Below, in pieces: positions 16,041 through 16,756 of a stretch of 64,000 nt of DNA; within the stretch, counting starts at the first letter, position 1, and the number at the start of each line of letters is the position of its first letter. A program made the translations under genes and the position numbers. The notes under the pieces were generated by a model, which searched no databases, was not told the origin of the DNA, and saw only the letters and a list, made by a program, of their open reading frames with translations. Origin of the DNA: Endozoicomonas sp. G2_1 (GTDB lineage: Bacteria; Pseudomonadota; Gammaproteobacteria; Enterobacterales; Alteromonadaceae); the NCBI RefSeq assembly GCF_017744155.1, contig NZ_JAGHQT010000003.1:1-64000 (forward strand), read 5' to 3'.

Positions 16041-16117
16041 TGGTGGCCCGTGGGGGATTTGAACTCCCATCGGCTCGCTTATGAGGCGAGGGCATTAACC
16101 AATTATGCTAACGGGCC
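16041..16117 (-). tRNA. tRNA-Met/Ile2 (anticodon CAU), encoded CCA
   Basis: Reverse complement GGCCCGT…CTCGCCTCATAAGCGAG…GGGAGTTCAAATCCCCC ACGGGCC A CCA folds as cloverleaf. Confidence 0.7.
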
Positions 16118-16123
16118 ATTGGT

Positions 16124-16196
16124 TGGCATAGCGATAGGGATTCGAACCCTACAGGCAAGGTTTTGGAGGCCAGCCGATACCCAGTATCTTCGCTAT
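16124..16196 (-). tRNA. tRNA-Trp-like (CUCCAAA anticodon loop) with abnormal D-arm and anticodon stem; possibly a pseudo- or decoy tRNA
   Basis: Perfect 7-bp acceptor (ATAGCGA/TCGCTAT), T-arm TAGGGTTCGAATCCCTA, encoded CCA, but D-loop only ~3 nt and anticodon stem does not pair cleanly. Confidence 0.4.
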
Positions 16197-16202
16197 TTTA
16201 TC

Positions 16203-16290
16203 TGGTGGAGAGTGAAGGACTCGAACCTTCAAGAGCCTAGGGCTACCTGATTTACAGTCAGGGACGCTACCAGTTACGTGCTAACCCTCC
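16203..16290 (-). tRNA. tRNA-Tyr-like (anticodon GUA, long variable arm), divergent from the rrn-distal tRNA-Tyr
   Basis: GGAGGGT acceptor with G-U, perfect anticodon arm CCTGA-CTGTAAA-TCAGG, long extra arm, T-arm GAAGGTTCGAGTCCTTC, CCA; D-arm irregular. Confidence 0.55.
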
Positions 16291-16300
16291 GAAAATCTGA

Positions 16301-16525
16301 TTAGATTTTGATAATATCTCCGTTTGCTAAAGTGATCTCAGTGCTAAAGCTACCACCGGCAGCTTCTACAAACTCTTTCAGCTTTAATAGGTTGGTATCG
16401 CCAACCGTTTTATTGCCCATTTTGCTGACCGCAGATTTATTGACATTGAGCATAAGTGCGATCACGTCTAGTTTGGTTTCTTCAGTATTGAGCTCTTTCA
16501 CTCGAGTATTGATACCCATATTCAT
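16301..16525 (-). CDS. Small HTH DNA-binding protein (XRE-like); start ATG 16525 (track ORF opens at TTG 16555)
   Basis: HTH signature LDVIALMLNVNKSAVSKM; AGGT RBS 6 nt upstream of ATG 16525. Confidence 0.5.
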   Translation of the reverse strand: MNMGINTRVKELNTEETKLDVIALMLNVNKSAVSKMGNKTVGDTNLLKLKEFVEAAGGSFSTEITLANGDIIKI

Positions 16526-16756
16526 TGCTTTACCTATATCTTTTCTTGGGCACAAAAAAGCCCAGTTGATAAACTGGGCTGCCGTCAGGAATATATTTAG
16601 GTTGCCCAGAAGAGGATCTCCTAGGACTGGGTCTCAGGAAATCTATGTCAGAATGTGATACCAAAAATATATTCGTGAAAAATTCATTACTAAAAGCCTT
16701 GTGTTAGCGATTGTTTAACTGAGTACAAGTTTATCGATTATTATCGTAGGAATAAA

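Follow-up and report, generated by a model that had tools for sequence, protein, structure and literature searches.

Why do a short open reading frame (ORF) and a row of tRNA genes lie immediately downstream of rtcR in Endozoicomonas sp. G2_1, and what controls them? We analysed positions 1 to 64,000 of contig NZ_JAGHQT010000003.1 (assembly GCF_017744155.1), the whole of which is called the window below. The original prediction for this locus described a small helix-turn-helix (HTH) gene and a Met/Trp/Tyr tRNA array at 16041-16555, with possible roles as spare or decoy tRNAs of an RNA-repair island or as the boundary of that island. All described features are present on the minus strand: the ORF, a tRNA-Tyr(GUA), an element with a CUCCAAA loop and a tRNA(CAU). 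Upstream of them, outside the interval described earlier, we observed a candidate leader peptide ORF and a candidate attenuator (16554-16687). On purely computational evidence we propose, with moderate confidence, that the region 16041-16790 of the minus strand, about 750 bp from a terminator-like hairpin to the tRNA(CAU), is an autonomous accessory (spare) tRNA operon subject to ribosome-mediated transcription attenuation.

The ORF, here called ORF74, has homologs in only four clusters among 5.8 billion proteins, one of them 100% identical and labelled by NCBI as 'Endozoicomonas sp. G2_1'. The contigs encoding these homologs contain the same block of hairpin, leader, terminator, ORF and tRNA genes in three genomic contexts. 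In group A, formed by the window and a 98%-identical Logan contig (L001), the block is situated between rtcR and yjdM. In group B (five metagenome contigs) it is situated between an alkaline phosphatase gene and a gene of the RDD family, without rtcR. Group C consists of two short contigs in which the tRNA-Tyr is absent. The first hairpin, a terminator-like structure directly after the rtcR stop codon (16765..16783, minus strand; terminator scan), forms the 5' edge of the conserved block in the alignment of the three groups, and homology across the contexts stops precisely at the 3' end of the tRNA(CAU). The three lineages carrying the block differ by 22-25%. Between groups A and C, the stretch containing the Trp-like element and the tRNA(CAU) is 92% identical, and the ORF with the leader is 75% identical. 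Judged by this comparison, the module is an autonomous unit, which is located beside rtcR in one of its three contexts.

The leader contains a single ATG-started ORF of 14 codons and a stop (16643..16687, minus strand). The candidate leader peptides are MNFSRIYFWYHILT in group A, MNFSRIYYWHNIST in group B and MNFARIYHWYHILT in group C, each followed by the stop codon. The start, frame, length and stop position of the mini-ORF are kept in all three groups, and the codons AUA, UAU and UGG are invariant. The proposed regulatory codons in the window are AUA-UAU-UUU-UGG-UAU (Ile2, Tyr, Phe, Trp, Tyr; 16658..16672, minus strand), situated within the 5' arm of a long-range helix. The leader has the conserved AUA and no internal AUG. 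A conserved AGG, resembling a Shine-Dalgarno box, is located 9-10 nt upstream of the AUG codon. Of four to five consecutive leader codons, four are therefore cognate to the downstream tRNAs, provided that the tRNA(CAU) is tRNA-Ile2. The chance of four such codons in a five-codon stretch, at the codon frequencies of the window, is roughly 1e-3 per mini-ORF, a rough and post-hoc estimate.

The tRNA(CAU) (16041..16117, minus strand, with an encoded CCA) is called by ARAGORN and scores 61.6 bits with the Rfam tRNA model RF00005, whose gathering threshold is 29 bits. The window strain has an A.C mismatch in the T stem, which is an A-U pair in L001 (843-919). Initiator tRNA-fMet is marked by a mismatched C1-A72 and by an anticodon stem that ends in three G-C pairs; the tRNA(CAU) is not an initiator, since it has G1-C72 and the anticodon stem CUCGC/GCGAG. 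The pairs C4-G69, C5-G68 and C29-G41 are the TilS and IleRS marks of tRNA-Ile2, and elongator tRNA-Met has U4-A69 and A5-U68. By inspection, all three marks are present in the tRNA(CAU), with U5.G68 in group B. BLAST against E. coli genomes gave no match. By these identity rules, the gene probably encodes a lysidine-containing tRNA-Ile2 rather than an elongator tRNA-Met. Of the tRNA-Met(CAU) predicted earlier, the tRNA thus stands, and the amino acid is more likely isoleucine.

The accessory tRNA-Tyr(GUA) (16203..16290, minus strand), a class II tRNA with an encoded CCA and a class-I-like D arm, is also called by ARAGORN and scores 47.3 bits with the same Rfam model. It shares 63% identity with the rrn-distal tRNA-Tyr at 375-459, from which it had been said to diverge, especially in the D arm; the D arm is indeed quite different and resembles that of phage tRNA-Tyr. 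The presence of the canonical gene at 375-459 and the extreme rarity of the module bear out the suggestion that these are extra, divergent tRNAs and not the ordinary set. Changes in the module tRNAs between the groups fall in loops or are compensatory: for instance, AGCC/GGCU in the variable arm of the group A tRNA-Tyr is replaced by CCC/GGG in group B. The tRNA-Tyr is the least constrained of the tRNAs, as it is lost in group C and differs at 4 of 88 nt, including the discriminator, between the window and L001.

ORF74 is preceded by an intrinsic terminator (16554..16580, minus strand), found by the terminator scan as a 9-bp stem with a T run about 30 nt ahead of the ORF74 start. Its arms are segment Y (GCCCAG, 16574-16579) and, after the loop, segment Z (CUGGGC), followed by six U. 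Together with two preceding segments, CCUAG/CCCAG and X (CUGGGC; 16604..16609, minus strand), they form a set of four with alternative pairings. X either pairs with the upstream segment, being sequestered in the hairpin 16605-16625, or pairs with Y as a candidate antiterminator, and Y:Z is the terminator. The long-range helix, helix P1 of the RNAalifold consensus, is formed by an inverted repeat: positions 16665-16678, which include the AUA-UAU codons, pair with the 3' arm AAUAUAUUCC (16585..16598, minus strand). In the alignment, a change of A to G in the group B segment Y is matched by changes of U to C in both X (UCGGGC) and Z, and the terminator stem of group B has a compensatory change of A-U to G-C.

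The dependence of these pairings on the position of the ribosome was analysed by ensemble folding of the nascent transcript, cut before Z is made, with an assumed ribosome footprint of 30 nt. With AUA, UAU or UGG in the A site, the probability of the X:Y pairing is 0.99 in group A, 0.5-0.8 in group B and 0.9-0.99 in group C. With the stop codon in the A site it is 0.00, 0.06-0.10 and 0.00-0.01, respectively. In both group A and group B the switch occurs as the ribosome moves from codon 11 to codon 13. Shuffled leaders matched the switch in 0 of 150 cases in group A, 11 of 150 in group B and 0 of 150 in group C. The leader thus has the features of an attenuator, namely a short ORF with candidate regulatory codons, a predicted terminator and, in silico, an antiterminator dependent on the ribosome position. 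No Rfam leader, riboswitch or T-box family matches it.

The following mode of regulation can be suggested. Transcription would begin upstream of the 14-codon leader ORF. When the ribosome passes AUA-UAU-x-UGG(-UAU) and reaches the stop codon, X would be locked in its local hairpin and the long-range helix would be shut, and formation of the Y:Z terminator would keep the operon off. If tRNA-Ile2, tRNA-Tyr or tRNA-Trp is depleted, uncharged or cut, e.g. by anticodon nucleases, slow decoding of the AUA, Tyr or Trp codons would stall the ribosome on these codons. The stalled ribosome would free the downstream arm, the X:Y antiterminator would form, and RNA polymerase would proceed into ORF74, itself devoid of Tyr and Trp codons, and the three tRNA genes. 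Once transcribed, the tRNA-Tyr, the atypical tRNA-Trp and the tRNA(CAU)/Ile2 would be released by RNase P and 3' processing and would restock the species sensed as short. The gene content, the conservation, the covariation, the alternative pairings and the in-silico switch are observed; beyond these, the scheme takes the leader to be translated, termination and antitermination to operate in vivo, the released tRNAs to be charged and to decode, the tRNA(CAU) to be tRNA-Ile2 and ORF74 to act as a regulator. The module tRNAs may also escape whatever has removed the host tRNAs, since the copies diverge from the host genes and the Trp copy has a phage-type compact core.

Several observations weigh against this interpretation. 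The spacing of 9-10 nt between the AGG and the AUG is rather long, and the sigma-70 promoter scan yielded no minus-strand candidate upstream of the mini-ORF. The switch is weaker in group B, where the 11 shuffled leaders were as good, and less clean in group C, where the probability of X:Y rises back to 0.69 at codon 14. The group C leader retains Tyr codons although the tRNA-Tyr gene has been lost, and the existing tRNA-Tyr copies have strain-specific defects, an A12.C23 mismatch in the window and G73 for A73 in L001. The global identity of the tRNA(CAU) to E. coli ileX and metT is 56 and 53 matches, respectively, which is not decisive, nor is its identity to metV, and, since AUA is common in the window (17 per 1000 codons), this tRNA might be the housekeeping tRNA-Ile2. 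Full-length equilibrium and minimum-energy folds keep the terminator under every footprint mask, and therefore the attenuator model leans on kinetic, co-transcriptional reasoning and on the assumed 30-nt footprint. As the regulatory codons overlap an arm of an RNA helix, and only three independent lineages are available, codon conservation could reflect structure rather than coding. Finally, the arms of P1 never vary, so covariation proves neither RNA pairing nor coding there.

One alternative is that the leader does not sense anything through a peptide and the mini-ORF is fortuitous. The region could then be a small RNA or a riboswitch with its own terminator, or the near-palindromes (GAATATATTC) could be operators of ORF74, with control by a TrcR-like repressor. 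Indeed, the P1 arms are copies of the near-palindrome, the HTH gene lies directly downstream of the leader, the tRNA array (trn operon) of Anabaena is controlled by the TrcR repressor (PMC10272220), and the full-length folds always retain the terminator. On the other hand, such an explanation does not account for the retention of the frame, start, stop and AUA, UAU and UGG codons of the sole leader ORF despite many substitutions, nor for the three-way co-variation of X, Y and Z, nor for a footprint-dependent switch that beats shuffled leaders, and the Rfam search speaks against a riboswitch. We consider this alternative unlikely.

Ribosome-mediated attenuation, as proposed here, resembles the trpL, hisL, pheL, ilvL and thrL systems in its short leader ORF, which abounds in regulatory codons, in the four segments whose pairings exclude one another and in the terminator ahead of the genes. 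As in those systems, stalling would lead to read-through, and a ribosome at the stop codon to termination, here as predicted by folding. Unlike them, the module would control tRNA genes and a small regulator rather than biosynthetic enzymes, so that what it senses and what it produces would be molecules of one kind. Further differences are the mixture of three codon types (AUA, UAY, UGG) in the leader, the location of the leader stop codon upstream of segment 1, and the part played in switching by the long-range helix with the regulatory codons. T-box riboswitches also make the choice between terminator and antiterminator depend on the charging or availability of a specific tRNA; however, they bind the tRNA directly and regulate aminoacyl-tRNA synthetase and amino acid genes in Firmicutes, whereas the module would sense through the ribosome and has neither a specifier loop nor a T-box motif. 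With the Anabaena trn array and phage arrays the module shares extra tRNA genes diverging from the housekeeping set; unlike these arrays it comprises three tRNA genes, resides in gammaproteobacterial chromosomes and has a proposed cis-acting leader peptide attenuator instead of, or besides, a repressor. TrcR is a ribbon-helix-helix protein, whereas the HTH gene of the module is HigA/XRE-like. The locus, read in this way, joins two known kinds of element, the leader peptide attenuator and the accessory tRNA array. A full-text literature search found no attenuator-controlled tRNA operon, and we know of no described tRNA operon that gauges the decoding capacity of its own products via the ribosome.

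The Trp-like element (16124..16196, minus strand) is not called by ARAGORN and has no RF00005 match at E<=5, the best match being tRNA-Sec with 18.5 bits (E=3.3). Scoring with ARAGORN, advised with the original prediction, and with Rfam thus recovered its two neighbours and missed this element. The features that had made it suspect, namely the CUCCAAA loop, a D loop of about 3 nt and an unpaired anticodon stem, are evident in the sequence: the D loop is UGG, and two of the five pairs of the anticodon stem are Watson-Crick in the standard register. The acceptor stem consists of seven perfect pairs, including A1-U72, and is followed by G73 and an encoded CCA; the T arm is normal. There are also a 5-bp D stem, a C31.A39 mismatch and a 2-nt variable region. 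By manual parsing, the anticodon helix runs on by three G-C pairs beyond a bulged U. The 1-72 pair varies between the groups (A-U to G-C).

In a scan of public collections, the anticodon arm GGC[G/U]GGC-CUCCAAA-ACCUUGCC also turned up in viral contigs of IMG/VR, one of them 128 kb long with 22 tRNAs in the part fetched, and in metagenomic tRNA arrays rich in GC. In their acceptor, D and T sequences these copies differ completely from the window element. The 18-mer of the arm is present in the collections scanned, and an exact 30-mer of the Trp arm and T arm is absent from them. One of the GC-rich arrays also contains a gene for transfer-messenger RNA (L033 479-824, minus strand, 107 bits) and another a weak match of 26 bits (L031 29-393); some large phages likewise carry such a gene. 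BLAST added phage members: a 642-kb uncultured phage, in which the arm covaries, Rhizobium phage RHph_I1_18, Aeromonas phage 4_4572, E. coli phage Av-05, Acinetobacter phage ABPH49 and two Serratia phages. The phage elements are MK813943.1 17151-17221, KM190144.1 about 5480-5560, MH533020.1 20332-20407, ON287369.1 29995-30070, ON287374.1 52356-52431, MN988519.1 (L038 1476-1552) and LR756502.1 (L039 1500-1570). None of the class members is called by ARAGORN, and Rfam had no match in the four array contigs scanned. In GenBank they are unannotated or, in the case of Aeromonas phage 4_4572, annotated as 'tRNA-Ser'. The array regions examined (4_4572, ChuuTotoro and the fetched stretch of the 128-kb contig) yielded no call of an ordinary tRNA-Trp, and none is annotated among the 18 tRNAs of 4_4572 or the 15 of ChuuTotoro; hence the atypical element seems to fill the Trp slot. 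Suppressor versions, sought as any anticodon within the same arm, were not found. The array of Rhizobium phage RHph_I1_18 contains a separate tRNA with a CUA anticodon (L038 2538-2615), annotated as tRNA-Pyl and likely an amber suppressor.

The class has a common architecture. The acceptor stem has 7 bp, usually with A1-U72 or G1-U/C72, followed by G73, and the T arm is normal. The D stem of 2-5 bp carries a loop of 3-5 nt that keeps GG, except in the Rhizobium phage member, where the D arm is of normal size. The anticodon helix begins with C31.A39, then has G-C, G-C and a G.U or U-A pair, a bulge at about position 43 and three more pairs. The C31.A39 mismatch occurs in 12 of 13 members, and the variable region has 2-3 nt. 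Among 11 parsed members, G73 is present in ten and A1-U72 in five. MAFFT misaligned the acceptor stem of the Trp family, and therefore manual parsing and covariance-model alignment were used. A model built from four members, the window sequence excluded, matches the Trp element with 50.8 bits (E=1e-12), the sole match in the 64 kb; canonical phage tRNA-Trp have 44-46 bits and other tRNAs at most 29 bits. In the 13-sequence alignment, which was fitted to the model and so favours structure, 95.9% of cells are paired, compared with 71.5% in shuffles (0/500 as high) and 41-54% in slid controls. Two-sided, compensatory changes occur at 16 of 21 pairs. The element, as judged from the covariance model and covariation, is thus a member of a conserved atypical tRNA-Trp(CCA) class under structural selection; the idea of a degenerate gene does not hold.

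The class shares with canonical bacterial and phage tRNA-Trp(CCA) the CUCCAAA loop, G73, the frequent A1-U72, the normal T arm and the 7-bp acceptor stem, and differs in the reduced D arm, C31.A39, the bulge at about 43 with its three additional pairs and the variable region of 2-3 nt. Tryptophanyl-tRNA synthetase (TrpRS) of E. coli recognises the anticodon CCA, G73 and A1-U72. The window copy, with CCA in its CUCCAAA loop, G73 and A1-U72, fits these rules and should therefore be chargeable with tryptophan. Compact cores are also known from mitochondrial tRNA-Ser(UCN) and from tRNA-Pyl. Like the latter, the class combines a tiny D loop with an extended anticodon helix and a short variable region, and in the window copy, as in tRNA-Pyl, only one nucleotide separates the acceptor stem from the D stem. 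A literature search found nothing specific on this tRNA-Trp class. A conserved tRNA type, present in cultured phages as well as in viral and metagenomic contigs, is thus overlooked by tRNA finders and GenBank annotation. This bears on studies of phage codon usage and defence evasion and on the mining of orthogonal tRNAs, and the compact D arm and extended anticodon helix raise questions of TrpRS recognition, modification and decoding.

Are these tRNAs nevertheless ordinary housekeeping genes, e.g. the only tRNA-Ile2 and tRNA-Trp of the organism, located after rtcR by chance and with a leader serving homeostatic feedback? As AUA is frequent, a tRNA-Ile2 gene must be essential somewhere in the genome; moreover, the Trp-like and CAU genes are 92% conserved between groups A and C, and there is no second Trp-type match in the window. 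Against this are the canonical tRNA-Tyr elsewhere in the window, the occurrence of the module with its ORF in only three lineages among billions of sequences, the loss of the tRNA-Tyr in group C and its defects elsewhere, and the fact that, apart from the module, the atypical Trp class turned up solely in tRNA arrays, namely those of phage genomes, of viral contigs and of two uncharacterised metagenome contigs. This makes a housekeeping set distinctly improbable, and we retain the interpretation of the module as an accessory operon.

ORF74 (16301..16525, minus strand) would extend over 16301-16555 if a TTG start were used; the ATG at 16525 is the start conserved among the homologs and gives a protein of 74 amino acids. 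Pfam HTH_37 matches it with 12-18 bits (E=0.002-0.14), below the gathering threshold of 27 bits, PHROG 2339 ('HTH DNA binding protein') with E=3e-5 to 4e-4, and the HigA2 and HigA3 antitoxins in PDB with E=0.02-0.03. All these matches cover the same region, residues 17-67. An AlphaFold2 model from the four-sequence alignment is unreliable, with a confidence score (pLDDT) of 50. The predicted small HTH gene thus exists as an ORF, and evidence for the HTH is weak yet consistent, so a HigA/XRE-like protein may be encoded. It would resemble HigA-type (HTH_37/XRE) antitoxins, including HigA2 and HigA3 of M. tuberculosis, in this weak profile similarity; unlike them, it scores below the family thresholds, has no adjacent toxin gene and is only 74 amino acids long. 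Substitutions in the group alignment follow a codon-periodic, third-position rhythm, and there are two synonymous changes in the 225 nt of ORF74 between the window and L001. Tyr and Trp are absent from ORF74 in all four homologs, which in 74 codons has a probability of about 0.03 at the codon usage of the window.

Codon 61 of ORF74, a Lys codon in a homolog, is replaced by an in-frame TAA in group B (L024 1172-1402, also L025-L028). The 16 codons past it are still in frame and conserved. As contigs obtained from several samples show the interruption, it may reflect either a recent pseudogene or read-through of the stop codon. In group C, ORF74 runs into the atypical tRNA-Trp, whose first nucleotides overlap the TAG stop codon (L029 590-610), and an RNase P cut at the 5' end of the tRNA would strip the stop codon and leave a non-stop message.

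The phage associations raise the possibility that the module is left over from a phage or mobile-element tRNA array, stranded beside rtcR and now without function. The Trp class is phage-associated and the D arm of the tRNA-Tyr is phage-like; the tRNA-Tyr accumulates changes between the window and L001 (4/88 nt, against two synonymous ones in the 225 nt of ORF74), the group B ORF74 is interrupted by TAA, and a variable DNA segment abuts the array. However, three lineages with 22-25% divergence have retained the whole block, with its terminator, mini-ORF and ORF74, and its substitutions are at third codon positions, in tRNA loops, or compensatory. The leader motif and ORF74 are absent from the IMG/VR viral collection, and the whole module shows only generic tRNA similarity (72-76%) to phages. 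An inert remnant is therefore, in our opinion, very unlikely.

There remains the position beside rtcR (16815..18413, minus strand; Pfam RtcR 1e-79 and Sigma54_activat), which lies outside the module. The array could be a functional part of Rtc repair, providing nuclease decoys or sponges, a source of the 5' halves that activate RtcR, or preferred RtcB substrates, which would explain tRNA-like genes on both sides of rtcR. In addition to the adjacency itself, three points favour this: RtcR is activated by 5' tRNA halves that end in a cyclic phosphate (PMC7790460), the trn array of Anabaena shares its regulation with rtcB and has a proposed sponge role (PMC8421152), and some Cellvibrionales have tRNA arrays with an HNH gene beside rtcBA. 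However, none of the 22 fetched loci of rtcR relatives (the best from Colwellia, 80% identity) contains the downstream tRNAs, ORF74 or the flanking genes of the window, and the group B modules occur without rtcR. The closer rtcR relatives do keep the rtc cassette (rtcR, divergent tRNA-like units, SPFH, RtcB, RtcA, RlaP). A terminator-like hairpin parts the module from rtcR, and no sigma-54 site (TGGCAC-N5-TTGC) was found ahead of the module within two mismatches on the minus strand at 16550-16800, whereas the same scan recovers the site of the divergent rtc operon at 18565-18579. Given the absence of the module from the 22 other loci and the lack of a preceding sigma-54 site, the rtcR neighbourhood is lineage-specific. 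A link to Rtc is plausible and lacks conservation; as an explanation of the array it is the least probable of those considered, and neither the proposed Rtc membership of the cluster nor its role as an island boundary is supported.

A TGGTAT/TGGCAC motif of the leader was also considered as a sigma-54/RtcR promoter and rejected: the GC at -12 and the correct spacing are missing, there is no match within two mismatches, and the motif belongs to an RNA helix with a compensatory change.

The attenuation model, together with published precedents, leads to a tentative view of the circuit as a whole, for which we would claim rather less than for the operon itself. Supernumerary tRNA arrays such as Anabaena trn are silent, are induced by translational stress and are co-regulated with rtcB, and a replacement or sponge role has been proposed for them (PMC8421152); phage tRNAs counter tRNA-degrading defences (PMC11555353; PMC10264068). 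The earlier idea of nuclease-resistant spares fits both these precedents and the leader. Possibly, a leader written in the codons of the downstream tRNAs detects their loss to nucleases, toxins or defences and induces divergent replacements, including the compact-core tRNA-Trp. Since RtcR itself senses cleaved tRNAs, co-location with rtc would place repair and replacement side by side in this genome, a linkage that is not conserved. Should the attenuator work as predicted, the operon would gauge, via the ribosome, the decoding capacity of the tRNAs it encodes. It would then offer a simple genetic readout of specific tRNA depletion, illustrate how accessory tRNA genes can stay silent yet available, and be a concrete, testable example of 'spare tRNA' defence or counter-defence on a bacterial chromosome.

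The 3' end of the tRNA(CAU) is abutted by a strain-variable segment of 2.3 kb (13739..16034), which is missing from L001 (at 925-1039; found by BLAST comparison with the window). The segment encodes an ArsR-type regulator, an ORF of 310 amino acids and a fatty-acid-desaturase-like ORF (Pfam). L001 instead has a gene of 627 amino acids further on, absent from the window. The suggested integration boundary is consistent with this variable segment; however, no integrase domain was found in the neighbouring ORFs, and the tRNA end is not repeated within 13300-17000.

On the other side of rtcR, the sigma-54 site at 18565-18579 is followed by three tRNA-like units called by ARAGORN (18668-18882, plus strand), in agreement with the predicted presence of tRNA-like genes on both sides, and then by genes for an SPFH protein, RtcB, RtcA, RlaP, an HD protein and a nucleotidyltransferase (Pfam). 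The ARAGORN anticodons of these units are odd or impossible, and one unit overlaps a weak YrlA match (34 bits, threshold 69). The operon behind the tRNA-like units encodes the SPFH protein and no Ro60/Rsr. Of 11 related rtc loci, 10 have one to three such units called by ARAGORN at the corresponding place (L002-L011, L016 about 5530-5745).

In Porticoccus, a metagenome-assembled genome of Cellvibrionaceae and a Microbulbifer species, a phage-like tRNA array is situated downstream of rtcB-rtcA on the same strand (L012 1359-2778, L013 469-2326, L018 1183-2351). It starts with tRNAs for Asn, His/Gly, Gln, Pro and Lys, which are followed by an ORF for an HNH endonuclease and next by tRNA-Met or tRNA-Ile(AAU). 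In two of these three loci (L012 and L018) the array lies between rtcA and the SPFH gene. These Cellvibrionales arrays are a second, independent case of extra tRNA genes at an rtc locus.

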